In this document: positions 131 through 29,933 of the stretch, piece by piece | Numbering within the stretch: the stretch's first letter is position 1 | How the letters are laid out: the number at the start of each line of letters is the position of its first letter | From: Acidobacteriota bacterium | Lineage (GTDB): Bacteria > Acidobacteriota > UBA890 > WLXD01 | DNA length: 64,000 nucleotides | Assembly (NCBI GenBank): GCA_965205505.1 | Contig: CBDBHB010000009.1 | Span: 2,784,001-2,848,000 of the forward strand | Direction: 5' to 3' | Position numbers and translations under genes: made by a program | Notes under the pieces: generated by a model | What the model was told of the DNA's origin: nothing | The model's database searches: none | What the model saw: only the letters and a program-made list of their open reading frames with translations

Positions 131-481
131 CTAGCCGGTACGGCGGGCGATGATGAGTTTGCCGGGCCGGTCGAGCGCATCCATGTAGTTGTGATCCTCG
201 ATGTGGTCAACGGTCCATATGCCGTCGGTTTCAAGGCCGGTGATGTGGCTGGCGTAATCGTCGTCGTCGAAGGGTTCGGCATTCATGAAAATCACAACCG
301 ACCCGCCTGGTACCGGCATGCGGATCAGTTCCCTGATTGCCTCCGGCCCGAGGTGGCCAATGCCGAAGCTGCCGACGGAAATGACCGCATCATAGGCACC
401 ATCTTCGATGGCAGTTTCTTTTTCTACGTTTTGCCAGATCAGGTTGCGATAGACGTCGGTCTTTTCGGCTTCGGCGAGCAT
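131..481 (-). pseudogene. 5'-truncated class I SAM-dependent methyltransferase
   Basis: YDAVISVGSFGIGH and PGG motifs present. No GxGxG motif I; in-frame stop shortly upstream. Confidence 0.65.
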
Positions 482-547
482 GTTCCTTGATATTTCTCTT
501 GCTCATCTGAGTTGCATCCCGTTTGCGGCAGACTACCGGGGGCGGGG

Positions 548-635
548 ATTTCGTAGGAGCCTCATTCGCGGGCCGGATTCCATAGCGCAACCAGAGGGGC
601 TGGGTGAGCGCCTGAAGCCTATCGCCGGAGCGCGC
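548..635 (-). pseudogene. Ser/Thr kinase remnant: upstream region plus degenerate first codons
   Basis: GTGAGCGCCTGAAGCCTATCGC is shared with 13847-13868. ATG at 583 reads MESG..(fs)GSYEI, like MEPGTKLGPYEI at 13825. Confidence 0.7.
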
Positions 636-690
636 GAAAGTCGCCAGGTGGCTCGCGAGGTCATCGTCAACCAGCGAAGTTCTTGAGCGG

Positions 691-1080
691 CTAGGCGGCT
701 CCGGTCCAGAGCGAGTAGCCGAGCGCGGCGGAAACGACGATCATGATCGCGCCCGGGACCCGGAACAGGCGTGAGTTGTCCGGCCCAATGCGCACCATCG
801 AGCGCAGGCCCACCTCCGGGAGGACGAACGTGACGATGGCCTTCAGCACCATGCTCCAGCCGAGCAGGGTGACTGCCATCGGGTATCCCGACCAGACGTT
901 GTGGAACGCGACGATCAATGTCCCCGTCACCAGGCTCCGGAAGCCGTTGGCGAAGGCTCCCGGCCGCCCGAGACTGTGCAGGTAGGCGAAGAATTCGGCC
1001 CAGGCGTGATGTTGGAGTACATGAGAGAGACCCAGGACGAGGAAGTTGACTGCAACGAAAGCTCGGATGCCCTGCTCCAT
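691..1080 (-). CDS. small integral membrane protein (about 4 TM)
   Basis: 129 aa hydrophobic ORF with LVTLLGW-like segment. Confidence 0.75.
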   Translation of the reverse strand: MEQGIRAFVAVNFLVLGLSHVLQHHAWAEFFAYLHSLGRPGAFANGFRSLVTGTLIVAFHNVWSGYPMAVTLLGWSMVLKAIVTFVLPEVGLRSMVRIGPDNSRLFRVPGAIMIVVSAALGYSLWTGAA

Positions 1081-1189
1081 TTGTTTGCGGCTCCATCGTT
1101 TGGCTTGGCTGTCGTCGGCGAAGTCGCTGCCCGAGCCGGCCCAGTAGGGCCGTGCTCGTTAACGTCGAGCGCCAGAGGCTATCGTTCTT

Positions 1190-1412
1190 CACCTCGTGGC
1201 GGTACCCAGAGTCACAGCTCAACCAGCTTGGAGCCGTGCTCTGGCCGGTGACGGGGAACATCCCGCTAGCGTTGACCGTCTACTGTGACGTCGTAGTCGG
1301 ATTGGGCAGCGAGGCCAAGCTGAGGGACGTCGAGCCCGCCGAGGAATGCCCCTCGAACAGAAGCTCCGGAGTTCCGTGGCTGAACGCGGAACCTTCCGTG
1401 GGTACACTTGCC
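1190..1412 (-). pseudogene. remnant of the C-terminal TolB/PD40-like propeller of a kinase-propeller protein
   Basis: FSHGTPELLFEG and DYDVTVDGQR in adjacent frames, typical of the last blade of these proteins. Confidence 0.65.
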
Positions 1413-1512
1413 GGGTCCCGGCGAAAACATCCAGCTGCCGGAACGCCAAATCGCAGGCCAATACCGTGCAAGCAAAATGACTGATCCGAGAACCAAACAT
1501 GGGAGGCGACAA

Positions 1513-2421
1513 ATGACTTTGGGAAGGCACAATCGTATTCGCGAGCTCTTGTTTCTGGTTTTCTTGCTGCCAATGGCTAGCGGCGCAATTGCTCAGGAGC
1601 TGAAAGTCTACATATCTGCAGACATGGAAGGCATTGCCGGAGTTGTTGCTGGGAACCAACTTTCACCGGGAGGATTCGAGTACAGCCAGTTCCGCGAATT
1701 GATGACTGCGGAAGTCAACGCCGCCATTGAGGCCGCACGCGATGCCGGCGCTACCGAGATTCTGGTTAGCGATTCGCACGGAAACGGCCTGAATCTGTTG
1801 CTGAATGCGTTGCCGCAGGACATCGAACTCGTTCGTGCCTGGCCGAGGCCGCTCGGGATGATGGAGGGAATTGACGAGAGTTTCGGCGCCGCAATTCTTA
1901 TTGGTTACCATGCGAGCGCGGGCAACATCGACGGTATCGCCGCCCATACGGTATCCGGCGGCGACTTGTTATCCGTAAAACTCAACGGGATGGAAATGAC
2001 CGAAGGCGGCATGAACGCACTGATCGCCGGTCACTTCGGGGTTCCCGTGGTGATGATCAGTGGCGACGATGCCGCGGTACGCGAAGTGTCCGACATGTTG
2101 GGCCCTATTGAGGGAGCCGTCGTCAAGTGGCACTACAGTCACACTTCGGGGCGCACCCTGATGCCGGAGGCTGCACGAGCCCTGATCAAGGAAAAAGTCA
2201 AAGCCGGGCTGAGGCGTCGGCGGCAGCTTGAACCTTTCAGAATCGAAGACCCGCTTGCTCTCGATATGACGTATAAGAACGACAAGGCGGCGGAAATGAT
2301 TGCTTATCTCCCAAACGTGGAGCGTATCGATAACCACACCGTACGCTTTGTTGGGAGTATCGTTGAAATAAGCATGTTCATCGAAATGGCGTTGGGCTAT
2401 CCGCCGACAATGAATCGCTAG
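1513..2421 (+). CDS. dppA: M55 family D-aminopeptidase (DppA-like), signal peptide
   Basis: [20 protein letters not shown] motifs. GGAGG precedes ATG 1513. Confidence 0.9.
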
Positions 2422-2527
2422 CTAGTGTCCTGAGTTGCATATTGTGGCGAGCGCGACCGAGCCGGATCCCAGGAGGCGCGACGACAGCGATGCAATGAGC
2501 ATCGTCGAGGAGCGCCGACGCCGGAGG
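2422..2527. mobile_element. partial MITE (type B end) with hairpin core
   Basis: CTAGTGTCCTG..GTTGCATATTGTGGCG is the reverse complement of about 62365-62480 and resembles 31610-31712. Confidence 0.8.
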
Positions 2528-2678
2528 CGGCGGCTCGGGCCTCCTGCTCAAAGCGGGCGAGGCGCTCGGGATCAGAGGCGAACTCGGCGGGCAGTACTTT
2601 GATGGCCACCTTGCGGCCCAGGCGCGTGTCCTGCGCCAGGTACACCTCGCCCATACCGCCAGCACCGAGCTGCTCGGT
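2525..2678 (-). pseudogene. Ser/Thr kinase N-lobe remnant
   Basis: [51 protein letters not shown] (Gly loop, VAIK). No start codon; cut off by the MITE. Confidence 0.9.
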
Positions 2679-2702
2679 CGAGCTGCCGCCCCGCCGTAAC
2701 CG

Positions 2703-3032
2703 CTAGAGATCTTCCCAACAGAGAAAGATCTCGTCTTTGACCTTTGAATAAACTGCCATGTGAACCGATTCCCCCGGCTCCCTGCGGGGAAGAATATGCT
2801 CTACAGCCCGGTCACACTGGGCGCGGTCTCGAAACGACATGATGAAAAAGTACTCGTGATCGCGTTCCCTATCAGTGTCCATGATCGGGTGCCTCTGCCG
2901 ACGACCGATAGGACCAGTGCGGTACACAAGTTCGAGCTCCTCGAGATGAGTCGTAAGGTCGGCAAGTGACTGCCGAAACTCGTCGATAGAAACCTCTGGC
3001 TTGAGATTGAAGCAGGTCAGCATATGAAACAT
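2703..3032 (-). CDS. dimeric alpha/beta-barrel (Dabb/DUF6614-like) protein
   Basis: MFHMLTCFNLKP...EYFFIMSFRDRAQCDRA..H..VYSKV. GGAGG upstream. Confidence 0.7.
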   Translation of the reverse strand: MFHMLTCFNLKPEVSIDEFRQSLADLTTHLEELELVYRTGPIGRRQRHPIMDTDRERDHEYFFIMSFRDRAQCDRAVEHILPRREPGESVHMAVYSKVKDEIFLCWEDL

Positions 3033-3080
3033 CTGGCGCCTCCACTCCTCAGCTCTATGCGACATGGGCTGCGAACCGTC

Positions 3081-3167
3081 GAGGGCCGCCGCGGCCTCGC
3101 GCTCGAATCGAGCCACCCGCGTAGCGCCTGCAGACTATCGCTGGGGCAAGCGAGGGTCCACGGGAGA
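3081..3167 (-). pseudogene. kinase remnant: upstream region fused to an alphaC fragment
   Basis: RVARFEREAAAAL plus GCGCCTGCAGACTATCGCTGG..GAGGGTCCACGGGAGA, matching 13851-13894. Confidence 0.75.
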
Positions 3168-3313
3168 AGCCACGACTATCCGCTCCGACGGCACCGACGA
3201 CAAGCTCTTGCCAGCACCGATTCTATGAGTTACGAAGTGGCCCAAACACTTGGGGCAGGGTTACTGTCCGGTGAGCGCAAGACGGCGCTCGATCCAAAAG
3301 CGTTGCATGCCAC

Positions 3314-4828
3314 ATGACGACTAGAGAGCATTCGAGTAGGACGGCGTTGCTGTCCGCAACGTTGTTGCCGCTGGGCTTGGGGCTGTCCCTTGCACTCTTC
3401 TCCTGTACGCCGTCGGCCCAAGAAGGCTCCGAGAGTGTGCGAGCGGCCGAAGACGACCCGATGTCCGACGGCGCACAGAACGTGCGGCTTGTGGGCTACA
3501 ACGATCTGCAGGGCCGCGAATCACTGCAACTAGTGACCCGCTCGGACCGGCAGAACGGAAACTGGCTCTATGTCGGTCACCAACCGAATGGACGCGGTGG
3601 CGACGAAGAGGGGCTGTTGAATCCCATCACAGGGGAGTTGGAAATCAATGGGACGTCATTGATCGACATCTCGGACCCATCCAGCCCAACCACGATGTGG
3701 CACATTCCTGGTGTTTCGAAAGCGAATCACCGCTCGGTTTCGGTCGTCTATGACTACACGCACGACGGAGAAGGCAAGGACTATCTCGCCCGCAGCCTAG
3801 ACACAGGTGACGAGTTCAGGTTCCAGATCTTCGATATCACCACCAGAAGCTCGGACCCCGCGCAGATTACTCTCGTGGCCGAGATCACCGGTACGCCCCC
3901 GGACTCGTGCGGCCCTGGTTGCGGCGGCCCTTTCAAGTATCGAGCGCACAAGGGCTATTGGTCGCAGGACTCGGGCTACTACTACACATCATCCGGGGAG
4001 CCCGGCTTCCGCAACACTTCACTCCAGATTTGGGACCTCAGGGACCCGAGAAATCCGAAATTTGCAGGCCGGGCGTGGCTCCCGGGCATGAAGGAGACGG
4101 AAGACGAAGCGCTCTACGAGGGCCAGTACGTGCACCATCCGATCGTCGACGAAGCCAACAATAGGATGTACATCGGCTTCCGCGGCTCCGGTTGGATGGG
4201 CGCGTGGGACATCTCCGAGCGCTCGAACCCAAAGATGGTCTGGAGCTACGATACGTCGCCGCCAGGGCGGGGTCCTCACACCCTTACGCCCGTCGTCTAT
4301 GACGATCTCACCCAATACTTCAAAAGCGACGCGCTACCCCGCAACTTCCTGTTCGTTACCGACGAAGCAGGCACCGCCGACCTGACGCCCTGCGAGGATG
4401 GCGTCCGTGCGAAGTCCTACATGTTCGACGTCACCGTGGAAACCCATCCGATGCCGGTCTCGACGTTTCAGGTGCCGACCGGTAATTTCTGTGACAAGGG
4501 TGGGCGCTTTGGTCCCCACCAGCACGCTGAGCAGCGGAACGGCCGCATCAACCGCCACGAGGACAGAATCGCCTGGATAGCCTATTTCAACGCTGGCGTC
4601 CGTGTCGTCGATCTCTCGGATCCCTACCATTTGACGGAACGCGGTTACTACATTCCCGAAACGAACGAGAACTCCTACCCTATGTCCGCGGGGCAGGAAA
4701 CGGCGATTCAGATCAATGACGTCACGCTCGACCACCGCGGTCTTGCCTACGCGTCGGATCGCGTAGGAACGGGCATGTTCGTCTTCGAATACACCGGTCT
4801 TAAGCCAGGCTCGCAGCCGCAGAGCTAG
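3314..4828 (+). CDS. LVIVD-repeat beta-propeller lipoprotein
   Basis: Lipobox-like ALFSC; repeated IDISDP / WDLRDP / AYFNAGVRVVDLSDP. Confidence 0.85.
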   Translation: MTTREHSSRTALLSATLLPLGLGLSLALFSCTPSAQEGSESVRAAEDDPMSDGAQNVRLVGYNDLQGRESLQLVTRSDRQNGNWLYVGHQPNGRGGDEEGLLNPITGELEINGTSLIDISDPSSPTTMWHIPGVSKANHRSVSVVYDYTHDGEGKDYLARSLDTGDEFRFQIFDITTRSSDPAQITLVAEITGTPPDSCGPGCGGPFKYRAHKGYWSQDSGYYYTSSGEPGFRNTSLQIWDLRDPRNPKFAGRAWLPGMKETEDEALYEGQYVHHPIVDEANNRMYIGFRGSGWMGAWDISERSNPKMVWSYDTSPPGRGPHTLTPVVYDDLTQYFKSDALPRNFLFVTDEAGTADLTPCEDGVRAKSYMFDVTVETHPMPVSTFQVPTGNFCDKGGRFGPHQHAEQRNGRINRHEDRIAWIAYFNAGVRVVDLSDPYHLTERGYYIPETNENSYPMSAGQETAIQINDVTLDHRGLAYASDRVGTGMFVFEYTGLKPGSQPQS

Positions 4829-4956
4829 CCGTCGCCGAAGGCGACAGGTGGTTCTCCGCTCCACTTCGACGGTTTCTACGCTCGGCCGGACCCGGAGGAG
4901 CCGTGGATCCTTCCGGCACTCGGCGGCTTCTTTGGCTTCAGCGAGAGCGACCCCTC

Positions 4957-5733
4957 CTAGCAGCCGGCGATGATCCGGAAGTTATCGAATGCCACCCAAC
5001 GATCGGCACCCGCTGCGCCGTAGCTCGTTTCGACTCCGATCCGTAGACCGCTCGCGACCGGACGTTCGATCCTGCCGTATTCGATCCAGGGGTCTGTCTG
5101 CCCGCGCCGATAGAAACTGGTGACTATCTCCGCGTCGATGCGCATGCGCAACGAAACCGGGGCGTCCCGCTCATAGGAGACGTTGTAGTGATCGTCGTGG
5201 GACTGGCCGTCGATCTCGCTCACGACCTGCAGGATCACGGGCGGGTCGCGCCTACCGAGGAAAGACTCCTTGTTCACCCGTACGTAGTTGTCATTGTCGA
5301 GATACAACATGATACCGGCGTTCTCGTACAGGCTCTCGGGACGGTTCCGAAGATCCACGTCGATACACAGTCGATCCTCCGATGCCGGAACATCTCGAAC
5401 CAGCAAGTTCTTGACGCCGTCGTCGTCGAGGTGGATGCCGCCAGGCTGAGTAAGGATATGAAGTTGGCCGTTCTCCAGTCGCCATCCGCCGTCGGTATCA
5501 CCGACCCACCCCCATCCCGCTTGCATGGTTCCGTCAAAAGTCTCGAAGAATAGGATCCGCTCCTGCAGCGCAGCTGCCATCGACCCGGTTCCTGTGAGAA
5601 GGGAAACGACGGCAACGATAGCGGAGGCTGAACCCCAACGCGTACCCGGGCGGATATTTGGTAGAATCGGCGGGAGGTCTGCGATGCGGCTCGCGAGCAT
5701 TAGCTGGCTACTGATCCGCTGGCACGGTCTCAC
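4957..5733 (-). CDS. concanavalin-A-like beta-sandwich protein (DUF1349 / GH43 C-terminal-like), exported
   Basis: YENAGIMLYLDNDNYVRV, LRIG, FDNFRI motifs. Start uncertain. Confidence 0.7.
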   Translation of the reverse strand: MRPCQRISSQLMLASRIADLPPILPNIRPGTRWGSASAIVAVVSLLTGTGSMAAALQERILFFETFDGTMQAGWGWVGDTDGGWRLENGQLHILTQPGGIHLDDDGVKNLLVRDVPASEDRLCIDVDLRNRPESLYENAGIMLYLDNDNYVRVNKESFLGRRDPPVILQVVSEIDGQSHDDHYNVSYERDAPVSLRMRIDAEIVTSFYRRGQTDPWIEYGRIERPVASGLRIGVETSYGAAGADRWVAFDNFRIIAGC

Positions 5734-6350
5734 TGCCCTGCTTCTCGGAACCCCGCCCCGGGTGGTTGCTCCGGAAGCGGCTCCACGAACCGAAACTCGC
5801 CCTCGAACACGCTCCGGTCACCGTTTGGAGCCCAGCGGCCCCAGACCGCCCGCACCAGATCGTCTGTCAGGTTCACCATCCGGTGCATCGTATTCGGGGC
5901 GATGTAGACCACCTCGCCGGGCTCGGCGAGGAAGGTCTCATTGCCGAGGGTCCACTCGGCCTGCCCGTCGATGACGACGTAGAACTCCGGTACCGGGTGC
6001 ACGTGACCGGCGTAGATCGCCCGTGGCGCGAGCTCCCAGAGGCCTACCTGCAGATCGTCGTCGGGAATCGAGACGCCGCCAATGACCACATTTCAGCGCG
6101 TGGTGCTGCCCAGTGACGGCCCCGCAGATGCCGGCCCCTGCCCTGAGAACCAGACGTTCTCCCAGCCAACCTGTGCCGAGTTGATGTGCGCTGGCGGCGC
6201 CGAAGTCTCTGACGCCGGGTTCGCCAGGTAGCCATCCGCGGTTCGCAGTGCGAAATCCTCGGGGACGACTTGTCCGGTGCTCGGAACCGCCAAGAGTAGG
6301 GCCGTCACGGCGACGGCGACTGGCGGGACGGACACACGCATCAACCTCAT
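5730..6350 (-). pseudogene. exported cupin (DMSP-lyase-like fold) with in-frame TGA at 6093-6095
   Basis: ORFs 6093..6374 and 5730..6089 are in one frame. HxHxxxEFY and PNTMH cupin motifs; signal peptide; AAGGAG SD. Confidence 0.7.
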
Positions 6351-6642
6351 AGTGCTCTCCTTGAGCCGTGGCACCGGTGAACTTGTTAGTCTATGTGCGG
6401 CGGTTTGGCGGGCGCGGGAAGCGTATCGTCAGCGCCGGTGAGAACCAACGGCAGGAGGAGGGGGGACGATACGGGCCGGCAGCGAAGTAGAGGAAATAGC
6501 CCCAACGTGGGAATTTTGAACACCACGCGGAGTATGTGGCGCGGCTAGCGAGGGCCGGGTAGGGAGCTGGTAGCCCTGTGTTCTCGCGAATCCTGGCGGG
6601 GTACCCTCGGCGCGACCGCAATGGCTGAAGCGAGGAGGACGC

Positions 6643-7815
6643 ATGGATCCCCTGACCCGCCGGACGATGATGCAGTGGGGGCTCGCGGGCTTGCCGCTGG
6701 CTGCCGCGTCACCGCTGGAACCGATCGTGACCCCAGGGCAGAACGGCAGCGCGGACCTCGAGCGGCTGCGCAGCCTGGTAAGGCTCACCGGCGACGGACC
6801 GTCGATGACGCCTCCCGAGTACGTCGATCTGTTGCAGCGGGTTTCTCGCGAAGACGGGATCGAGACCGACAACTACTCTCGGGGCGGCGTCGTGGCCGCG
6901 CTCGAAGAGCGCATGGCGGTGCTGCTGGGCAAGGAGCGCGCAGTGTTCCTGGCCACCGGTACGCTGGCCAATCATCTCGCGGTGCGCCTTCTCGCCGGAG
7001 GCGACCAGCGCGTGGCAGTGCAGCGCGACAGCCACCTGTACAACGACTCGGGCGACTGCGCCACGGTGTTGAGCGGTCTGAACATGGTGCCGCTGGCCCA
7101 CGGGCGAGGTACATTCACCGTAGAAGAGCTCGAAGAGCTCCTCGAACGAACCGGCTCCGGGCGGGTAACGACCGGACTCGGAGTGATCTCGATCGAATCG
7201 CCGATCCGCCGACGCTTCGGCGAGACGTTCGACGACGGAGAGATGAAGCGCGTCTGCGCATGGGCGCGCGAGCGCGGCATTCGCACCCACCTGGATGGCG
7301 CGCGCCTGTTCATGGCTTCCCCCTACACCGGAGTCTCGCCGCGCCAGTATGCCGCCCGCTTCGACACCGTCTACGTGTCGATGTGGAAGTACCTCAACGC
7401 CATCTCCGGCGCCATCCTCGCGGGGCCCGCGGCGCTGCTCGACGATCTGTTCCACACGCGCCGCATGTTCGGCGGCGCCATGCCCGGCGCCTGGCCGTTG
7501 GCCGCGGCGGCGCTGCGCTCGCTCGACGGCTTCGAGGAGCGCTTCGCCGCGGGCGTAAGGGCCGGCGAGGAGCTGATCCGGGCGCTCGACGCCACCCCGG
7601 GTTTCGCGGTGCAGCGTGTCACCGGCGGCAGCAACCGCTTCTGGCTGTCGGTCGACGGCGACTCGGCGAGGTTGGTTGAGCGGGCGGCCGAAGCCGACGT
7701 GTTGCTGCCGTCACCGGGACGGGACGGCCGTCTGCTGCTGACCGTGAACGAGACGCTCGCACGCCGGCCGACCCGATATGTGGTCGAGGCGATCAGCGCG
7801 GCTGTGGCCGCCTGA
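6643..7815 (+). CDS. low-specificity threonine aldolase family PLP enzyme with Tat signal
   Basis: TGTLAN, HLDGARL, SMWKY; N-terminal TRRTMM; GGAGG SD. Confidence 0.88.
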   Translation: MDPLTRRTMMQWGLAGLPLAAASPLEPIVTPGQNGSADLERLRSLVRLTGDGPSMTPPEYVDLLQRVSREDGIETDNYSRGGVVAALEERMAVLLGKERAVFLATGTLANHLAVRLLAGGDQRVAVQRDSHLYNDSGDCATVLSGLNMVPLAHGRGTFTVEELEELLERTGSGRVTTGLGVISIESPIRRRFGETFDDGEMKRVCAWARERGIRTHLDGARLFMASPYTGVSPRQYAARFDTVYVSMWKYLNAISGAILAGPAALLDDLFHTRRMFGGAMPGAWPLAAAALRSLDGFEERFAAGVRAGEELIRALDATPGFAVQRVTGGSNRFWLSVDGDSARLVERAAEADVLLPSPGRDGRLLLTVNETLARRPTRYVVEAISAAVAA

Positions 7816-8100
7816 GCGATCGAGGTGGCGCTTCGGAGAGCTGGATGAGCGCCAGAACGTCCCGTCAGCGCAGACGAAGTCCAAGGAAGCCGAGTTGGTC
7901 CACCGGGCCAAGAAGAAGCCGAAGGTCGATGTCTGTCACATCCCTCTGGGCAATCCTGGCAACGTTCACGTCATCAGCATCAATGAGAATGCGGGCCTTC
8001 TAGGGACGCTTAAACAGATATATGACTGGTGCCCGTCTTGCATCATGGACGAGCGGAATCGAAGGGTCGTGAGGTGGCTCGCGAGGCGCGACTGAGCGCG

Positions 8101-8148
8101 CTACGGGTCCGTCGGCACGAGCCGCTTCAGCTCGTCGAACCAGTTGAG
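8101..8148 (-). pseudogene. kinase-propeller extreme C-terminus remnant
   Basis: LNWFDELKRLVPTDP*. 8108-8148 is identical over 41 bp to 12652-12692. Confidence 0.85.
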
Positions 8149-8306
8149 CGCGCAAGTGGATCTATGTGACCGGCCTTTGCATTGGCGGCGAGATTCATGA
8201 ACTATGCCCGGGCGGCAAGTGCAGTCGAATACTAGTGGGACAGCGGTCGTGCCCACCGGCTCACCCTAGGTGCCGGATGTGTCCCCTTTTCCTTGGAGGG
8301 CTCCAG

Positions 8307-9602
8307 ATGGTGCGTCGAATAGCTTTGGGCCTCGTCGCGATATGGCTCCATGCGACTCCAGTGTCCAGCCAGGTTGTCGCGATCAAGGCAGGACAGGTAG
8401 TGAATACCGAGTCCGGCACGACCGCGACAAACCAAATCATTATCGTCGAGTCTGGTGTCGTTAAGGCTGTTGGCCCGGGTCTTCCAATCCCTGACGGTGC
8501 GGAGCTTGTGGATCTCTCCACCTCGACCGTCCTCCCGGGACTATTCGATGCCCATACGCATCTTTGCATGAACGTTCGTCCTGGACGCGACGCGGGCAAT
8601 TACTACTTCACCACTCTGCAGGATTCCGATGCAGCGCGGGCACTCGATGGTGCAATAAACGGCCGGTCGATGCTCAATGCAGGCTTCACCACCGTTCGTG
8701 ACATCGGCAATGAGGGGGCGTACGCGTGCACGGAGTTGCGCCGTGCCATTGAAGCGGGGCGCATTGTTGGCCCCACCATGATCAATGCCGGCCGGATCAT
8801 CGCCCCGTTTGGAGGGCAGTTCAGCCTCCAGCCAGACAGGCCAAATCTCGGTGAGCCCGAGTATTTCTTCGCCGATACGCGGGACGAAATGGTCAAAGCC
8901 ATCCGCGAAAACGTCCATTACGGCGCGATGGTGATCAAGATCGTGGTCGATGATCAGGACTACATTTACTCGCCTGATGACATTAGGTTTATGAAAGAGG
9001 AGGCGGCTCGCGCCGGTCGGCGGTTGGCCGCGCATGCCTGGACAGCCAAGGGCGCTCACAATGCGGCTGAAGCAGGGGTTACCTCGATGGAGCACCTGTG
9101 GGCGATCGAGGATGCTGACCTCGAATTGGCAAAAACGAATGGTGTCACTGCTGTGTTCACCCCGTTCCCGGACGAGGAGTGGACCGCCTGCTGCCAGCAG
9201 CACTATCCGGGATTTGTATTGGAGAGGCCCACGGCTGAGGAAATGGCTGCAGTGCATGCCCAGCAGATCGACCGCATCAGCAGTGCCCTAAGGATCGGAA
9301 TTCCGATGGTCTTCGGCTCCGATGCCGTCACTGAGCTACCCGGGCATACGCGTGGGACTCTGGCCATGAGCCGCATCGACATGTTTACGGAGGCAGGGAT
9401 GACGCCCGTTCATCTACTCCGGTCAATGACGACAGGGGCCGCGGAACTATTGGGCGTGGCCGAAGTGCGCGGAACGATTGCTCCGGGAATGGCGGCAGAC
9501 CTCATCGCGACACCGCGCAATCCCCTTGATGACATCCAGGAACTGAAGCGCGTGTTCTTTGTTATGAAAGACGGCGTGATCGTTCGTCAGGGTCCATCTT
9601 GA
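8307..9602 (+). CDS. metal-dependent amidohydrolase (prolidase-like), signal peptide
   Basis: PGLFDAHTH, GFTTVRD, AAHA, FGSDA, GTIAPGMAADLI. Confidence 0.9.
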   Translation: MVRRIALGLVAIWLHATPVSSQVVAIKAGQVVNTESGTTATNQIIIVESGVVKAVGPGLPIPDGAELVDLSTSTVLPGLFDAHTHLCMNVRPGRDAGNYYFTTLQDSDAARALDGAINGRSMLNAGFTTVRDIGNEGAYACTELRRAIEAGRIVGPTMINAGRIIAPFGGQFSLQPDRPNLGEPEYFFADTRDEMVKAIRENVHYGAMVIKIVVDDQDYIYSPDDIRFMKEEAARAGRRLAAHAWTAKGAHNAAEAGVTSMEHLWAIEDADLELAKTNGVTAVFTPFPDEEWTACCQQHYPGFVLERPTAEEMAAVHAQQIDRISSALRIGIPMVFGSDAVTELPGHTRGTLAMSRIDMFTEAGMTPVHLLRSMTTGAAELLGVAEVRGTIAPGMAADLIATPRNPLDDIQELKRVFFVMKDGVIVRQGPS

Positions 9603-9617
9603 ACCACTAGGCTCACC

Positions 9618-9848
9618 CTATCGAATGAGGGTTACGGTCTTGGCGAGCTCGACGATGCGATCCCGCGAACCGGTCAACGCTCTGGCGGTCGCAGGCCAAT
9701 TCGCGCCGACGAGTTCGCCGTTTTGTTTCACGCGCTCGCCAGCGACCCAAACGTCCGTGACGTCCGCAACCCCGGTATTGAAAACGACAGCGGCGACCGC
9801 GTCGGATACGGGATGATGGCTGATGGAGTCCGCAGCGATGAGCATCAA
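9618..9848 (-). pseudogene. C-terminal fragment of a second amidohydrolase (deaminase-like)
   Basis: DVTDVWVAGERVKQNGEL terminal motif only. Confidence 0.6.
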
Positions 9849-10335
9849 ATCCTCGTGGTTCCGTAGGGAGGAGGGTCGACAGACGGGGCTAGACCTCCCG
9901 CGGCTCCACGCCAGCCAGCTCAGCCGCCTCTAGAAGCAACGCTAGCTGCTGCTCCGGTTTGGCTGTCGGTGTCAGGGCCCAGGTTGACCAGTGACAGGTC
10001 GGTGAGTGTACGGATGTTGCAACGGTGCACATGTACCAGCGAGTTCATTATCCCCCTTGCGCTCTAGATTGTCTTGGCAGAATGAGCCGCGCGTTGCTTC
10101 TGCAGACGTTACGATCAGAGGCAGGCAGGAGACCGGGAAGAAGCCCGTCGCAGCGGCCTATCGAGGGAGTCGCCCAGGACCAGGATCAGCGGCTAGCTTT
10201 GCGGGCGGGCATGAGAGAGGGCGTGTGGTTCTAGAGGCACCTTGCATCCCAGGCGTGGCAGTTCCTGACCGGCGCCGCCGGTGTGTTCCCAGCCTCGCGT
10301 GCCGAAACACCCCTGATCGAACTGATGCGCCGCGG

Positions 10336-12219
10336 CTATTCCACCACTGGCAAAATGACAACTGATGGATACTCCGGCGAATGGTGCACGATGTTACGTG
10401 CCGGTATGCCCTCGGTCTCGTCGTAGTTGTTGCCGCCGGTATTCATGTTGCGATCCCAGCGCGGGAAGTTGGAGCTGGACACCTCCAGCCTGATTCGGTG
10501 TCCTTTACCGAAGTAGTTGCTGGTGGCTTCAAGGTCCAGGTGGATTTCATACACCTCGCCTTCTTCCATCCACACCTTGCGCCTCAGATCCTCCCGGTAT
10601 CGCATGCGTATCACGCCTTCCTGCACGTTAAACGCCCGACCATCGGGATAGACGTCGACCAGCTTCGCAGTGAAATCGGTGTCTTTCGCATCGGAGGACA
10701 CATACAGGACGACCTCGAGGAATCCCGTGACTTCGATGCCCTCCTCTAGCGGTGGCGACGAATACACCAGCACGTCATTGCGCATTTCGATCGCCGACTG
10801 ATCGTAGCCGCCCGCGGCAGCCTCCAGACCGGTACAACACGCCTGCCCGCCGCGCCCGAGCACGGGGGTTGCGGGGTCGTAGACGAACTCGTCCGACGCA
10901 TCCCCTGTCGGCATCGACCGCGACAGGGTCCCGTCGCCGAAGCGACTGTTCGCGCGGCCTGCGCTGTCCAGGTACCACTCCTGGTAGGCGGTCCCCTCGA
11001 CCGGCCAGGCATCGGCTCCGCGCCACTCGTTGGCGCCCATCAGGTAGTACTGCACCCGCGGCATCTCGGTGATGCCGTTGTCGACGCCCTTGAGCCAGTA
11101 CTCGAACCACGTCAGGTAGAGGTCGACGAAGTCCATGCGCGCATCGCCGAGATCGGGCTCGCCGACCACCGTGTTCTCTGTTGCCGACGCCCAAGCGCAA
11201 TGCTCGCTCGGCGCCAGAATGACGAACTGATTGTCGCGCGCCCTCTGGCTCAGCGCGTTGGCCCGTATCTGATTGAACAGCTTCAATACGTTGCCCGGCC
11301 CGTAGTCGTACCAGGAGTCGATGTACAGGGCGGGCGTATCGAACGCATCGTCGGGTCGCACCAGGTCGTTCAGGCTGTCGAAGTAGTCCGACTCCGGGGT
11401 GCTCGGCGCGTAGTCCTCGTAATCCGTGTAGGGCATGCCGGCTTTGCGAACGATGTCGGCGACGGGCAGCGTTTCGTAGATCGCCATGATCTCCTGGCGG
11501 CTCAACCCGCCTCGCGGCGCCCTGAAACCCGTGCTAAATAACCCCGACTGCTCCGACTGGAACCACTCCTGCCGGTCCATCCACTCGGGCGGTCCGTGAA
11601 AGACCTTGCTGCCGGCGTCGAGAAACCAGCCCGCGGTCTCCGCTAGCTCCATCGCGCCCCCGTTGAACGAGGCGAACGGGCGCCCGCCGCTGTCGTACGA
11701 GGCGGTGCTGGCCTGCGGAATCATGGCGACGTGATTCGGGTGCTGTGCCGCGGCGAGCACAAGTTGCACGTCGCCCGAGTAGGAACAGCCGAACGTCCCG
11801 ACCTTTCCGGCGGACCACGGTTGATCGATCAGCCAATCGATCGTGTCGTAGCCGTCCTCCCTGTCCGCGTTCTTGGACTGATAACGGCCCTCCGACTCGT
11901 ACCGCCCGCGCGTGTCCTGGACGGCGACGACGTAGCCCTGCTGCACCAGCAAGGAAAGCATGCCCTCGGTGCGGTACCAGTTCTTGCCGTACGGTGTCCG
12001 GATCATGATGACCGGCACCTTGTCCTCGACTCCCGCCGGGAAATAGAGATCCGTCGACAGCCGTATGCCGTCGCGCATGGGTACGAAGACGCTGTTCTCC
12101 TTGCGGATCTCCGTCGTGATCTCCGGCCGGGGTGGAGACTGCGCCGAGGCAACCAGCGGGATGATGAGAATCACGCCGAGCAGTATTGCTGTAACGGACT
12201 TGTGCCCGTTCTTGTTCAT
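10336..12219 (-). CDS. CocE/NonD family serine hydrolase, signal peptide
   Basis: VPMRDGIRL, RTPY, QDTRG, GCSY, HRIRLEVSSSNFP. Real start placed at MNKNGHK. Confidence 0.9.
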   Translation of the reverse strand: MNKNGHKSVTAILLGVILIIPLVASAQSPPRPEITTEIRKENSVFVPMRDGIRLSTDLYFPAGVEDKVPVIMIRTPYGKNWYRTEGMLSLLVQQGYVVAVQDTRGRYESEGRYQSKNADREDGYDTIDWLIDQPWSAGKVGTFGCSYSGDVQLVLAAAQHPNHVAMIPQASTASYDSGGRPFASFNGGAMELAETAGWFLDAGSKVFHGPPEWMDRQEWFQSEQSGLFSTGFRAPRGGLSRQEIMAIYETLPVADIVRKAGMPYTDYEDYAPSTPESDYFDSLNDLVRPDDAFDTPALYIDSWYDYGPGNVLKLFNQIRANALSQRARDNQFVILAPSEHCAWASATENTVVGEPDLGDARMDFVDLYLTWFEYWLKGVDNGITEMPRVQYYLMGANEWRGADAWPVEGTAYQEWYLDSAGRANSRFGDGTLSRSMPTGDASDEFVYDPATPVLGRGGQACCTGLEAAAGGYDQSAIEMRNDVLVYSSPPLEEGIEVTGFLEVVLYVSSDAKDTDFTAKLVDVYPDGRAFNVQEGVIRMRYREDLRRKVWMEEGEVYEIHLDLEATSNYFGKGHRIRLEVSSSNFPRWDRNMNTGGNNYDETEGIPARNIVHHSPEYPSVVILPVVE

Positions 12220-12319
12220 CGTCCGGCCCCGGGGCATGAATCGCTGCGCCACCGCGGAGTGTACAGGTCTCCAGCAGGGAAGCGGCGGTCGCGGCGGACA
12301 GCGCGGCTCGACCGACTCC

Positions 12320-12650
12320 CTACTGTTGCGCCCGCATTGCCACAGCCTCGTCGTACAGGGCACACGCCTGCGCGCGCAAGCCGGCGCCGGCCCGCACCTG
12401 GTCGCCGAGCTCGATGTAGGCATCGGACTCCGGGTCCCATTCCGGCCACGTCTTCGAACCGTCACCGTCGGGTCACCGGTGGCGGCAAAACGTGTCCAGT
12501 ACCCGCCAACCGCCACCGCCAGCGCGGCGTCGGTCGTGTCCCATGGCATCCAGCCTGTCAGGAGTGTTGAACACGTGCGGGATCTCGGCGCCGTGGACGT
12601 CGCCCAGAGCTCCGCCGGGCTGCACGCGCCTGAAGTAATACAGCCAGGCC
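12320..12650 (-). pseudogene. type-B carboxylesterase C-terminal fragment, frameshifted
   Basis: WLYYF..HGAEIPHVF, YWTRFAATGDP and WPEWD..YIELG pieces in shifting frames. Confidence 0.75.
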
Positions 12651-12651
12651 T

Positions 12652-12710
12652 TCCGTCGGCACGAGCCGCTTCAGCTCGTCGAACCAGTTGAGGACGACGT
12701 TTACCGGTTC
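12652..12710 (-). pseudogene. kinase-propeller C-terminus remnant
   Basis: VNVVLNWFDELKRLVPT. Confidence 0.85.
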
Positions 12711-12837
12711 CTTCCTGAGCCGCACGATTGCCCTGCAGGAGTGGTTCCACGAGCAGAATGCCGGCTGCCAATGCAGCTGGTAGACGAGCCCTGCTCGACG
12801 CGCAGCCACGTCCTCACGCGTCGGTGCGGCGGGTGAT

Positions 12838-13419
12838 CTAGCGCAGCCAGCCTGGCGGGATGGCGCGGCGGCGAGCCTCACGACGCAGTCGCCGCTCCTC
12901 GTCGTCGAGCTCCTCGAGCCGGTCCTCGACACGCTGGATGCGCTCGTTGATGCCGGTGAGGTTGTAGTGCCCGAACGTCATCGCGCGGCGCATGCGCCGC
13001 AGCCCTCCGTCCAGTGGTCCGTCCAGTAGATCGCGCAACTCGGCGCGTTCGTCGCGGATCGCCATCCGCTTCCCGAACCAGTACTCGCGAGTCTTCTCGG
13101 CCAACGGCGTTTCGGCCACTGTTTCCGTATCCGCGGCCACGTCCTCGCCGGCAGAAGCCACCGGACGAACGGGCATCGGCGGCGACGGCACCGGGCCGAT
13201 CTCGTCGTTGTCCTCGACGCGGTCAACCAACTCCATGGACAGCGCAGCGGTGGCGCCGAACTGAGTGAAGATCACGCGACCGCCCTCGACGCGGGCCTCG
13301 TCCGTATGAATCATGCGGCCGGACTTCAGGTAGATCGTATCGGCCGTGGCCGGTGCGGCGAACAACAACGCCAGCGCGGCCATGGTCGATGCCAATCGAC
13401 AATGCTTGCCATTCAACAT
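12838..13419 (-). CDS. exported coiled-coil hypothetical protein
   Basis: Signal peptide ending ATA-DTIYLKSGR; C-terminal EARRRAIPPGWLR; GGGAGG SD. Confidence 0.75.
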   Translation of the reverse strand: MLNGKHCRLASTMAALALLFAAPATADTIYLKSGRMIHTDEARVEGGRVIFTQFGATAALSMELVDRVEDNDEIGPVPSPPMPVRPVASAGEDVAADTETVAETPLAEKTREYWFGKRMAIRDERAELRDLLDGPLDGGLRRMRRAMTFGHYNLTGINERIQRVEDRLEELDDEERRLRREARRRAIPPGWLR

Positions 13420-13497
13420 CAGGGCCTCCCGCGGTGACGCGGCGGTTCGGCCACCCCACCTCCGATTCAATCGGTTACACCCCGGCGCCGCAAGGGC

Positions 13498-13895
13498 GTC
13501 CAGCGTCGTATCGCGGGCTCGGTACATCTGCCCCATCCCGCCTTCACCGAGTGGGGCGAGGATTTCGTAGTGGCCGAGCGTCTTGCCGACCATCAGGAGC
13601 CTCCGGTCGGCACTAGCCGGTTCAATTCCTCGAAGCAGTTGAGGACCACGTTGAGTCGTGTTCCGGGTGCCGTGCCTGTCCGCTTCCACGAGATGCCGCG
13701 AGCCGTTTCCACGGCGACACGGAGAACATCTTCGTCACCAAGGAGGGCCACGCCAAGGTGCTGGACTTCGGTCTGGCGAGCTGCTCGGTGATCTCGTAGG
13801 GGCCTAGTTTGGTGCCGGGTTCCATCGCGCTCCCGAGGCACGGGTAGTGAGCGCCTGAAGCCTATCGCTGGAGCGTGAGAGGGTCCACGGGAGAG
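13498..13895 (-). pseudogene. cluster of four kinase remnants
   Basis: Upstream region + MEPGTKLGPYEITEQL (13777-13895). Inverted + strand ENIFVTKEGHAKVLDFGLA (13722-13778). C-terminus RLNVVLNCFEELNRLVPTGGS* (13593-13660), whose TGA overlaps the ATG of MVGKTLGHYEILAPLGEGGMGQMYRARDTTLD (13498-13593). Confidence 0.9.
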
Positions 13896-13998
13896 GGCGG
13901 AAGGGGCTAAAGAGCGTCACACTTTGCAAAGCAAAGTAAATGATGAACAATGGTGGGAGACGGACGAATGAACTGCCTCGGCGGCGGATCGTCTGGAC

Positions 13999-14021
13999 GT
14001 GCTACCCAAAGTGCTACCCAA
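13999..14021 (+). repeat. tandem 11-bp direct repeat GTGCTACCCAA (possible integrase arm-type sites)
   Basis: GTGCTACCCAA-A-GTGCTACCCAA about 70 bp upstream of the tRNA. Confidence 0.5.
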
Positions 14022-14037
14022 GCTACTGAGGCGGACG

Positions 14038-14066
14038 TTGTCGAACTTCTTAAACGCTCGTAAAAT
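14038..14066 (+). promoter_or_regulatory. sigma70-type promoter of tRNA-Leu
   Basis: TTGTCG-N17-TAAAAT. Confidence 0.55.
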
Positions 14067-14093
14067 GTTGATATTAAATGAGTAACAGAACAT

Positions 14094-14176
14094 GCCGGGG
14101 TGGCGGAATTGGCAGACGCGGCGGACTTAAAATCCGCTGGCCTTAGGTCATCTGGGTTCGAGTCCCAGCCCCGGCA
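14094..14176 (+). tRNA. tRNA-Leu(TAA), no encoded CCA
   Basis: GCCGGGG/CCCCGGC acceptor stem, GCGGA-CTTAAAA-TCCGC anticodon arm, long variable arm, GGTTCGAGTCC T-loop. Confidence 0.96.
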
Positions 14177-14194
14177 CTTGTTTAGAATCAGGTA

Positions 14195-14285
14195 CTTAGA
14201 CAGCAGCAGTGGCAAGTGGCACCAGACCTGGATCGACGTGAACGGGGTGCCGTCCTACCTAAACGGCGGCTTCGAAGGCGGGCTC
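14195..14285 (+). pseudogene. internal gene fragment (DUF1579-like beta-barrel)
   Basis: DSSSGKWHQTWIDVNG..LNGGFEGG with no start codon. Confidence 0.45.
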
Positions 14286-14293
14286 GCCGGCTG

Positions 14294-16968
14294 CTATGAA
14301 GGCGTACCACCGCGTAACGACAATGCCGGGTCATGACGGGTGGCGCGCCTCGCCGGCAGCGCTGCTGCTGCCGTTCCCATCACGACCACCACGATCGCCG
14401 CCGGCACGTACATCCGCAGGTCGAGTCGCTCGACGCCGAAGAGGCCGGCGTTGACGAGCGTGGCGAATCCGAGGGCCAGCGGCACGCCGAGACCGATACC
14501 GAGCGCGGCGAGGCGGAGTCCGGAGCCGAGGATCATGCGGTTGACCTGCTCGGCGCGGGCGCCGACGGCCATACGGATGCTTATCTCGCGGTAGCGGCTG
14601 TGGGTCTCGAGCATCAGGACGCCGTAAATGCCGATGGCTGAGAGCAGCACCGCGGCGCCGGCGATCACGCCGGCGAGCAGTAGAGCGAACCGTTGCGGGC
14701 CCACGGCGCGGTCGTAGTCGTCGCTGAAGGAGTGCAGTCCGGCGACCGCCAGATCTGCATTGACGCCGGCGACAGCATCGCGGATCGAATCGGTCAAGCT
14801 TGCCACCTGCCGGCCGCGCACCATGTAGCCGATTTCCCATCGCGGTGCCTGGGCCCAGGGCAAGTAGACCTGGCCGGTGGACGGCTCATCGATCGATCGA
14901 TCTCGCAGCGGCTCGGTGACCCCGACGATGCGTGCCGGGACGTTCTCGAAGTGATCGTCGCGCCAATGACTGACGATCACCCGACGTCCGAGGGCCTCGT
15001 CGTGGCCGAACAGGCGCTCGGCGAGCACGGTGTCGAGCACCGCGCGACCCGCTCACCTTCGGCGTCGGCGGCTGCGTCGAACTCGCGTCCCGAGATCAGC
15101 CGGGTGCCGAGCGTGTTGAAGTAGCCGGGCGTCACCATACGATGATCGACGATGCCCTGCTGGCTCGGATCGTCGGGACTTTCGACCAGCACCACACGGT
15201 TGGCCCAGTTGACCCAGCTGCCGAGCGGCATGTGTGATCCGGCGCCCACCGACTCCACGCCGGGAAGATCGAGAATCTCCTGCCGCACCTCGCGGACCAC
15301 GCGATCGCGCGTGGCTCCCTCGGCGAAGCCCTCCGATGACAGGCTGATCTTGAACGTCAGACGTTCCGGTACCTGGAAGCCGGGCTCCACCTGTTGCAGG
15401 TTGGCCACGGTGGCCGCCATTAGCGAGGTCCCTACCAGCAGAGCGAAGGTGGCGGCGATCTGTGCCACGCTTGCCACCCTCCGCATGCGGATGCCGAGCC
15501 TACCGGAACCCTCGCCGGGGCGGCCGAGCAGGAACCGCGACAGGTCCGAGCGCGACAGCAGCAGCACCGGCCCGACCGACAGGAACAGCACCGAGACGAT
15601 CGCGGCGCCGATGGCGAACAGCGCCACGCGGCCATCGGCGCTGACGTCGGCAAGGTGCTCGAGCGACGCCGGCCGTACCGTCCAAAGCAGCGATAGGCCG
15701 GCGGCGCCGAGTGCCATGCCTAGGGCGGAAGCGGCGGCTGCCAATAGCATTCCTTCGCCGATCAGCTGGCGGGCCAGCTGGCGTCGCTCGGCACCGAGGC
15801 ACGAGCGCACGGCGAACGCCGGTAGTCGGGCCACTGCATTGGTCACCATCAGGCTCGTGACGTTCGTCAACGTGAGGAACAGCAACAGCAGGGCTCCCGC
15901 CTGCACGCCGATGAGCGCCACGCGCAGGTGGCTCGTCCACTCGGTGTTCAGTTGGCGAACGTCGAACCAGACATCGGAGTCGGCCAGGTCGGGGCGCAGC
16001 TCGCGAAGATCACGGGCCGGCTTCTCAAGCGCAGCTTGCGCCGCGGCCGTGCTCAGCCCCGGCCTCAAGCGACCGACGACACGGAGGTAGTACTGGTCGG
16101 GATTGAGGTATTGCAAGGGAGGGTAGGGGACGAACGCGTCGAGATGCGTGGGGACGCCGTTGCCCGGCGGAAAGCGGAATTGGAATCGTTCTGGCATCAC
16201 CCCGACGATCTGGTGCGGCGTCCCGTTCATCCGCAGCGTCATGCCGAGCACGTTCGGATCGCCGCCGAAGTAGCGCTGCCAGAACGCGTGGCTCAGGAGT
16301 ACGGAGCCTTGCGCATCGGGGGCGGTCGGGTCGGCGGCGTCGTCGTCACGCAGCAGGCGGCCCATCGCCGGTGGCACCCCGAGGGTCGAAAAAAGCGATG
16401 CGGTCGATTGGCCGACCGATACCTGCTCGGGATACTCCCCCCCGGTGATTGTCGAGCTGCTCGCCCATAGTCCGCCGATGCTCTCGAACACGTCGCCGGC
16501 CTCGCCCAGCTTGTCGAGCTGGGCCGGTGACAGTGGAGCCTGTGAAAAGCCGGCGGCGCGCCAGTCGCCCCATACCACCACCAGGCGCTCTGGCTCGGCG
16601 TACTGGAGCGGTCGTAGCAGGACGGCGTTGGCGACGCTGAAGACGGCTGTGTTGACGCCCAGGCCGATCGCCAACACGAGCCCGCACATCGCGGTGAATC
16701 GTGGTTGCCGCACGAGCCCCTGCAGGGCCTGGGCTAGCTCCCAGGCCAGCCGCGCCCGCAAGGCTACTCTGTCTCGCTGCCGCGCCCGGTACGCCTCGGG
16801 GAGCGCCAGGAGGCTGTCGATTACCAGACGTGACGCTACGCGCAGCCGCGCCAGGCCCTGCTCCCGGCCGACCATTTCCGTCGCGGTGTGGAGCCACGGC
16901 TCCCCCAGCTCCTGGCGAAATCTACGGGGGTGAAGCCGCAGCAGACCGAGCAGGATCCATCGCATCAC
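14294..16968 (-). CDS. ADOP-type duplicated ABC permease (MacB/FtsX), frameshift near 15041
   Basis: LAIGLGVNTAVFSV..VLLRPL, IVGVMP, AIGIYGVL..R.REISIRMAVGA, PARRATRHDP. Split into two ORFs. Confidence 0.88.
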
Positions 16969-17306
16969 GACCCCGACCTCTCCAGGAGCTTCTTGGCGTG
17001 GGCTGCCCCCACGAGGCGCTCGAAGCTCTGTGCCTCCAGAGTTACCTGTCGCAGCCCCGCCCCGGTGAGGCGGTAGTAGCGGCGTCTGGGATCGGCTCCC
17101 GCTCCCGCGTCCGACTCCTCGATCAAGCCTTCGCTCAGGACGCGTTTGATGGCGTTGTAGAGACTGCCCGGCCCCAGTCGTACCTCGCCGTCAGTAACTG
17201 TTTCGATCTCATCGATGATCTCGAGCCCGTAGCGCTCCGCGTCGACCAAGGCTAGGAGCACGTAGAAAGAGGTACTGGAGAGTGGTTTCGTAGAACGCGC
17301 TGGCAT
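16965..17306 (-). CDS. PadR family transcriptional regulator
   Basis: YGLEI..LGPGSLY..RRRYYRLT; overlaps the permease start (ATGA). Confidence 0.93.
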   Translation of the reverse strand: MPARSTKPLSSTSFYVLLALVDAERYGLEIIDEIETVTDGEVRLGPGSLYNAIKRVLSEGLIEESDAGAGADPRRRYYRLTGAGLRQVTLEAQSFERLVGAAHAKKLLERSGS

Positions 17307-29926: not shown

Positions 29927-29933
29927 TGCCGGC

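Follow-up and report, generated by a model that had tools for sequence, protein, structure and literature searches.

Short relics of a Ser/Thr kinase-PD40 gene family mark changes of gene content beside a tRNA-Leu gene and probably descend from an eroded kinase cluster

Among the systems described so far, the displacement or “orphan” arrays of the rearrangement hotspot (Rhs), contact-dependent inhibition (CDI) and type VI secretion system (T6SS) loci, as presented in PMC5361080, are the closest in kind to the locus considered here: a string of short relics of one Ser/Thr kinase-PD40 gene family, lying next to the tRNA-Leu(taa) gene in a window of 64 kb (the whole stretch analysed) of chromosomal DNA with a G+C content of about 64%. 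According to that source, leftovers of a gene family separate other genes in such arrays, which are proposed to arise by recombination, either homologous or homology-facilitated illegitimate, with the constant part of the family as its anchor. The present locus resembles them in the separation of other genes by family leftovers and in a family whose 5' part is constant while the 3' part varies (mean pairwise identities of 0.85–1.00 and 0.20–0.47, respectively, among nine members). It is unlike them in the following: (i) no intact master gene stands at the head of the array within the 64 kb; (ii) the leftovers are tiny conserved ends and not displaced variable 3' parts; (iii) the intervening genes are unrelated peptidases, hydrolases and others instead of cognate partners; (iv) the family encodes receptor-type kinases where those systems have toxins. 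Two of the three features that define displacement arrays are lacking here.

Integrons, defined by IntI, attI and attC, likewise consist of genes strung between copies of one short element, and their content varies between relatives. Unlike an integron, the locus possesses neither IntI, nor an attC-like hairpin, nor fixed element boundaries, its genes lie on both strands and often several to an interval, and the recurring element is a gene fragment. With tRNA-linked islands and plasticity zones it shares a variable content beside a tRNA gene, compositional outliers and, in a relative, an integrase fragment, whereas the window contains no integrase or tRNA-derived direct repeat, both sides of the tRNA gene are variable, and it is kinase relics that mark the breakpoints. 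Expanded sets of Ser/Thr kinase paralogues are known in Acidobacteria, with an identity under 50% over the full length (PMC3174227). The present family also forms a large set of paralogues in the same bacterial group; it differs in that residues 1–210 are 85–100% identical and the rest 20–47%, and relics are not mentioned in that source. A limited search of the open-access literature yielded no account of breakpoints marked by kinase relics or of such a pattern of conservation, which is not to claim that none exists.

The relics were located by tblastn searches of the window with ten full-length kinase-PD40 proteins (P0022, P0019, P0025, P0026, P0028, P0034, P0040, P0047, P0048 and P0060). Seven places matched with E ≤ 1.3e-4 and identities of 62–100%, all of them within positions 2523–13825; beyond 13825 the best E value was 0.022, with nothing below 0.02. 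A preliminary description of this DNA had listed about ten pieces of one expanded kinase-PD40 family with conserved ends. This observation is confirmed, its family origin by the ten queries and by the identity profile of nine members. Besides the seven places, 548 marks a genuine piece, that at 3081 is weak (solid motif, E 0.19), and that at 1190 is not supported. The latter (1168–1334, minus strand) would be at most a very degenerate kinase 3' end with the motif; it reached an E value of only 0.57, and no motif copy was found there within three mismatches. All pieces lie on the minus strand except one internal inversion (13695–13796, plus strand), in agreement with the strand bias noted earlier.

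The source family has been characterized starting from the 65-residue translation of 2487–2681 (minus strand), for which 7841 of the 8000 candidate proteins scored had E ≤ 0.001; among the matches listed, 52 of 120 were at least 800 residues long, and members of about 900 residues carry Pkinase, PD40 and related Pfam domains. Twelve family proteins were retrieved, ten of which served in tblastn and nine, all full-length, in pairwise comparison. The mean pairwise identity was 0.85–1.00 over residues 1–210, 0.20–0.47 over residues 301–870 and 0.50 in the last 29 residues; the family has conserved ends and a variable middle. Many representatives of separate 50%-identity clusters are 84–98% identical to the window fragment over residues 13–63. 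The near-identity of residues 1–210 in paralogues of several genomes (P0019–P0060) suggests that the kinase half evolves in concert or is very strongly constrained, and the pattern merits separate study, with 85–100% identity over 210 residues against 20–47% in the PD40 part. Truncated members are frequent throughout the clade, as 14 of the 31 family matches on contigs longer than 1 Mb were under 600 residues, again among the matches listed. In a plasmid collection the kinase matches were all under 60% identity, and a 24-kb region of a Gemmatirosa plasmid held one kinase only and no tandem array.

The 5' stubs in the window are truncated at different points. The stub at 537–660 (minus strand) comprises a tandem-array spacer, the upstream motif (608–625), an ATG (583–581) and about 15 frameshifted codons (“GSYEIPAP”) that align with the kinase start at 13825 and with a stub of L004, the closest relative among the loci fetched. 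In the stub at 3075–3167 (minus strand) a 45-nt upstream block with the motif at 3124–3141 is joined directly to a weak piece resembling residues 52–66; this piece (“ARFEREAAAAL”) has only about 70% DNA identity to the internal piece at 2523 and a tblastn E value of 0.19. The 5' stub of “kinase B” (13501–13593, minus strand) covers residues 1–32, with a tblastn match at 13501–13587 to residues 4–32 (62% identity). Two 3' stubs stand apart from other kinase pieces. The first (8066–8157, minus strand) reads “LNWFDELKRLVPTDP” up to its stop codon; its last 15 residues, matched by tblastn at 8104–8148, are 100% identical to P0047, and 38 nt of kinase-type downstream spacer follow. The second (12648–12704, minus strand) reads “VVLNWFDELKRLVPTEG” and has lost its stop, with the last 19 residues matched at 79–89% identity. 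One internal piece (2523–2678, minus strand), cut at both ends, contains the glycine loop and the VAIK lysine and is 98% identical to intact members over residues 13–64.

The relic of “kinase A” (13593–13894, minus strand), about 300 nt long, consists of an upstream block with the motif at 13851–13868, two gene ends and internal scraps. The kinase start (13778–13825, minus strand) matches residues 1–16 at 100% identity. It is followed by an inverted scrap (13695–13796, plus strand; match to residues 125–160 at about 64% identity, codons 127–156 or so retained) joined at the microhomology AGCTG, by an internal scrap (13671–13739, minus strand; residues 294–316, E 0.038, codons 299–310 retained) and by the 3' end with its stop (13596–13676, minus strand; residues 876–902, 96% identity). 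The stop of relic A overlaps the ATG of relic B in the sequence TGATG. In the window and its relatives, the 3' stubs retain 5, 5, 14, 16, at least 19 and 27 codons, and in the window and L004 the 5' stubs stop after 0, 16, about 17, 32 and about 36 codons. As conserved pieces from the gene ends, 5–52 codons long, the relics display, when set against intact homologues, the truncation, frameshift, internal deletion and inversion by which pseudogenes are recognized. Four of the five 5' stubs of the window and L004 have a same-strand gene immediately downstream, namely the methyltransferase fragment, the open reading frames (ORFs) 2703–3068 and 12838–13419, and a creatinase/prolidase-like gene in L004.

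Several short sequences recur among the pieces. The upstream 18-mer GCGCCTGMAGMCTATCGC, reported earlier as present three times, indeed occurs three times in the window against 0.04 expected. It belongs to a 45-nt block upstream of kinase starts, and in three of the four copies of this block (those of the window and one in L004) a kinase start codon lies about 25–45 nt downstream; judged from these stubs, the block would also precede intact kinase genes. The 41-mer at 8108–8148 is identical to 12652–12692, so the repeated C-terminal sequence was correctly recognized, and 39 nt of the 12648–12704 stub are identical to the right-hand stub of L004. Within the 38 nt that follow the stop of the stub at 8104, 15 of 15 nt recur upstream of the 608 motif, and this spacer is also present beside a 5-codon stub in the relative locus L001 (92% over 39 nt). 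The sequence TGGACC-N17-TAGGCT, considered as a tentative candidate promoter, matches only 7 of 12 consensus positions.

Intact kinases and mobility genes were sought in three sets of frames: (i) 22 hand-picked stop-to-stop frames within 1–17 kb; (ii) 43 of the 59 frames of at least 200 residues starting at or beyond 16 kb, the other 16 being judged shadows of better frames; (iii) 118 stop-to-stop frames of at least 40 residues in the non-genic parts of 1–14.4 kb. Pkinase, PD40, integrase and transposase gave no Pfam match above threshold in any of the sets, in accordance with the preliminary description. The sole exceptions were two sub-threshold Pkinase fragments, at 20.9 and 14.8 bits against a cut-off of 31.7, and these are the relics themselves; such scores and the lack of PD40 are expected of fragments that derive from the family and are not functional members. 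No intact kinase has been found in the 64 kb by the Pfam scans and tblastn together.

The locus was compared with relatives through one cargo gene, the amidohydrolase (8313–9602, plus strand), whose loci with 10-kb flanks were collected by a search of genome contigs. By amidohydrolase protein identity the closest are L004 (97%; a metagenome-assembled genome, MAG, labelled Acidobacteriota), L001 (88%) and L002 (86%; labelled Gemmatimonadetes). Among all 79 loci fetched, tblastn with the kinases detected family relics in L004 only; the other kinase matches are genes of distant taxa, 23–48% identical. By blastn, the window and L004 have in common the block 8101–9610 at 95.4% identity, the tRNA-Leu block 13999–14198 at 83% and the stub copies, and nothing else, so the comparison of cargo proposed earlier for this locus shows a differing gene content. 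The shared amidohydrolase block starts at the stop codon of the 3' stub 8066–8157, which forms its left edge, and ends 8 nt past the amidohydrolase stop. In L004 a second 3' stub in direct orientation lies 24 nt beyond the block, which leaves the amidohydrolase between a direct pair of 3' stubs; L001 carries a stub of 5 codons on the other strand, 9 nt after the same gene. The amidohydrolase is surrounded by at least 10 genes in the window and at least 8 in L004, none of them shared. The L004 neighbours, all unlike those of the window, are MetH, a GT2 glycosyltransferase, an M14 peptidase, a beta-lactamase-like protein, PGA_cap, AHSA1, PilZ and an N-truncated integrase, and the neighbours differ again in L001. 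The amidohydrolase and tRNA-Leu keep their order and orientation, 4.5 kb apart in the window and 8.9 kb in L004. The tRNA-Leu block of about 200 nt, including the promoter region, is conserved in L004, while both of its flanks differ; the left flank in the window is kinase relic A and the right flank in L004 is a kinase 5' stub. Each of the four edges of the two shared blocks consequently lies no more than about 130 nt from a kinase relic in one genome or in both, and counted per genome this holds for 5 of 8 edge sides. The kinase pieces sit where the gene content changes, and their earlier placement at junctions is supported by this count.

Two further elements are found at the relative loci. 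An N-truncated Phage_integrase ORF in L004 (19652–20236, plus strand; Pfam positions 48–171 of 172) ends 34 nt before tRNA-Leu and has no counterpart in the window. A tRNA-like remnant that is conserved between L004 (17960–18037) and L001 (3289–3366) shows a T arm, a long variable arm and an anticodon arm whose loop reads CTTCAAA; it was not called by ARAGORN or Rfam. In L004 it lies 2.2 kb from tRNA-Leu with the integrase fragment in between, and in L001 about 100 nt from the kinase 3' stub.

The region is moderately probable to be a set of eroded tandem kinase paralogues in a plastic zone beside tRNA-Leu, and the relics most probably remain from kinase genes that eroded in a region of fast rearrangement, and are not a gene-capture machine. 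Several tandem minus-strand kinase-PD40 genes would once have adjoined tRNA-Leu. Of these genes at least four 5' ends and three 3' ends are left, and the TGATG overlap of relics A and B together with the recurring downstream spacer points to former tandem kinase genes. Being dispensable, these genes would have been whittled by internal deletions and one inversion, while neighbouring genes were gained and lost and interrupted the kinase remains; short kinase end-pieces between ordinary hydrolase and peptidase genes would be the outcome. Repeated internal deletions would be expected to leave a relic such as A, with its two ends, two scraps from the interior and one inverted scrap. Decay is not limited to the kinases, as seen in the N-truncated methyltransferase, a 68-residue tail of a TRZ/ATZ-type amidohydrolase and a split ADOP permease. 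The near-identical first 630 nt or so and last 45 nt or so of the family may act as dispersed repeats within genes that tolerate damage, for which reason it is proposed that rearrangement breakpoints pile up at kinase genes. The kinase genes would thus serve as ends of deletions, of the inversion and of gene gains, with no dedicated recombinase or recombination site involved, and the 5' stubs may persist because they still provide a promoter to the gene now downstream. The ancestral tandem array and the order of these events are inferred from the surviving pieces.

Several observations weigh against the erosion of a kinase cluster as a full account. The window and L004 hold different genes, hence deletion alone is insufficient and gene gain must have occurred. 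The amidohydrolase between two direct 3' stubs in L004 bears a closer resemblance to an exchangeable unit than to a random scar, and the perfect 41-mer in two relics and the 39-mer identical between genomes are unexpected for old neutral scars unless gene conversion has acted. A consensus promoter scan did not call the upstream motif as a promoter. The G+C content at third codon positions (GC3) of the M55 peptidase (0.65) and the amidohydrolase (0.67) is below that of all 34 Pfam-supported genes outside the array (mean 0.778, sd 0.038, minimum 0.71), so that 2 of the 6 Pfam-supported array genes hint at a foreign origin. The comparison of gene context covers one cargo gene in one close relative. 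Recombination anchored on kinase homology, the idea of the preliminary description stripped of its integron analogy, is considered possible but rather unlikely; it would make the conserved kinase ends homology arms for gene exchange by homologous or homology-facilitated illegitimate recombination. DNA with a kinase end beside another gene would recombine at any resident kinase copy, and in this way kinase loci would gain, exchange or lose genes, both inside one species and across species, with stubs remaining. Such exchange would fit an amidohydrolase block that begins exactly at a 3' stub's stop codon at 95.4% identity to L004, carries two direct stubs there and a 5-codon stub 9 nt after the gene in L001, and has different neighbours in all three genomes. 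The identity of residues 1–210 among paralogues across genomes would offer recombination anchors in many copies, the two GC3 outliers are cargo genes, and PMC5361080 reports a proposal of the same mechanism for V. cholerae T6SS immunity arrays and Rhs loci. However, the 5' stubs of the window are only about 75–87% identical in DNA outside the motif and the 3' anchor measures only about 41–45 nt, which makes them poor recombination substrates. The order and orientation of the amidohydrolase relative to tRNA-Leu, kept in both genomes, suggest that the neighbours changed and the gene stayed put; one cargo gene, the methyltransferase, has been cut short where it meets the stub; the orthologous stubs are only about 87% identical, against about 95% for the adjoining gene; and no donor-recipient pair was observed. 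More doubtful still is the wider proposal that kinase-PD40 is a recombination-driven receptor family, in which frequent exchange keeps the 5' third and a 45-nt 3' tail uniform, the variable sensor part is swapped between copies and species, and the same arms carry unrelated genes into kinase loci as a by-product. If it were true, the family would be a recombinase-free vehicle for gene gain, and the tRNA-Leu locus one of its dumping grounds.

One or more integrase-driven genomic islands at tRNA-Leu, with the kinase relics as incidental residents or passengers, would agree with a variable region adjoining a tRNA gene, with the integrase ORF and tRNA-like remnant of L004 and with the compositional outliers among the cargo. 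This origin is nonetheless improbable: the window frames scanned gave no integrase match, no repeat of the tRNA-Leu block longer than 11 nt occurs elsewhere in the window, both tRNA flanks differ between genomes, and the relics at the edges of the amidohydrolase block are left unexplained. A search of 16 array ORFs against PHROGs returned nothing phage-like, only an aldolase-like match of unknown function. An assembly artefact, with contigs mis-joined through kinase repeats, is very improbable. The source looks like a MAG of a clade with many near-identical kinase 5' regions, and two other genes of the window are split by frameshifts; yet the junction of stub and amidohydrolase recurs in the independent L004 assembly, the relics are short (45–160 nt) and mostly diverged from one another and therefore poor bridges for mis-joins, and the deletion-and-inversion mosaic of relic A is unlike the product of a repeat collapse. 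A true site-specific, integron-like cassette system with the stubs as recombination sites has been brought close to refutation, and its probability is now minimal, even though short repeated elements do separate the array genes beside a tRNA gene and the L004 locus has an integrase fragment at its equivalent end. All six stub and motif copies fold no better than their shuffles (z from −0.59 to +0.34), the stub ends differ in extent by up to 22 codons, the plus strand carries 4 of the 12 genes or gene relics, and no recombinase was present in the window frames scanned. The intervals between confirmed relics hold 2, 1, 4, 3 and 1 genes. The integron-like array of the preliminary description cannot be maintained in view of the variable ends, the absence of hairpins, the use of both strands, the truncated cargo gene and the non-kinase relics, and capture of single genes as cassettes is not supported, with one gene in only two of the five intervals.

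The association of kinase relics with breakpoints, if it holds genome-wide, would mean that an expanded signalling-gene family, and not mobile elements, is the main driver of rearrangement in a little-known, mostly uncultured lineage labelled Acidobacteriota or Gemmatimonadota, a situation comparable to that for which Rhs elements were first named. The relics also bear on annotation, as they are predicted as small ORFs and thereby inflate kinase counts in such genomes; the 78-residue ORF 2418–2654 over the internal relic, for instance, is representative P0123 in the public protein set.

The genes around the relics were assigned as follows. The methyltransferase fragment (134–502, minus strand), directly downstream of the 5' stub 537–660 and on the same strand, has a Methyltransf_11 match (E 6e-4) below the gathering score; it covers only profile positions 25–95 of 95, which indicates N-terminal truncation at the junction with the kinase stub. 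The M55 D-aminopeptidase (DppA-like) lies at 1408–2421 on the plus strand, and a small ORF with a weak DUF6614 match (2703–3068, minus strand) follows the 5' stub 3075–3167 on the same strand. The span 3314–7815 holds four cargo genes with no relic between them: an LVIVD-repeat protein (3314–4828, plus strand), a GH43_C2/ConA-like protein (4957–5733, minus strand), a cupin (5730–6089, minus strand) and a threonine-aldolase-like PLP enzyme (6643–7815, plus strand). The amidohydrolase is Xaa-Pro-dipeptidase-like, and alignment with three relatives places its start at an ATG near 8313. It is followed by a relic of a non-kinase gene (9621–9848, minus strand), 11 nt from the right edge of the L004-shared block, in which a 76-residue ORF represents the last 68 residues of the TRZ/ATZ-type amidohydrolase (PRK08204 positions 377–444 of 449, E 4e-11). 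A CocE/NonD (S15) X-Pro dipeptidyl-peptidase-like hydrolase (10336–12222, minus strand) starts with “MNKNGHK”, after which comes a signal peptide. A hypothetical secreted protein of 193 residues (12838–13419, minus strand), placed between one 5' and one 3' stub of its own strand, belongs to a stand-alone family of 176–228 residues, with a best match 94% identical. A carboxylesterase-like stretch suspected at about 12450–12560 had no Pfam support and was discarded.

The tRNA-Leu(taa) gene (14094–14177, plus strand) is the sole tRNA gene of the window, and an Rfam scan of the window gave no other match. Upstream of it, a tandem GTGCTACCCAA repeat (13985–14093, plus strand) is conserved in L004, as is the sole promoter-like site called near the array (14038–14066). 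Peptidases and amidases are unusually abundant in positions 1–24600 of the window, with M55, S15, two amidohydrolases, a formamidase, an amidase and an M12 peptidase; genes of this type in L004 are the M14 peptidase, the beta-lactamase-like protein and the creatinase/prolidase-like protein. The ADOP-family duplicated permease (14297–16998, minus strand) occupies two overlapping frames, 14980–16998 corresponding to profile positions 4–562 and 14297–15052 to positions 562–801; it is split exactly at profile position 562 by a frameshift or a sequencing error, with no homopolymer at that point. The second frameshifted gene of the window is a cardiolipin-synthase-like PLD gene (29895–31450, plus strand), apparently split into 29895–31043 with PLDc_N and PLDc_2 and 30764–31450 with a second PLDc_2.

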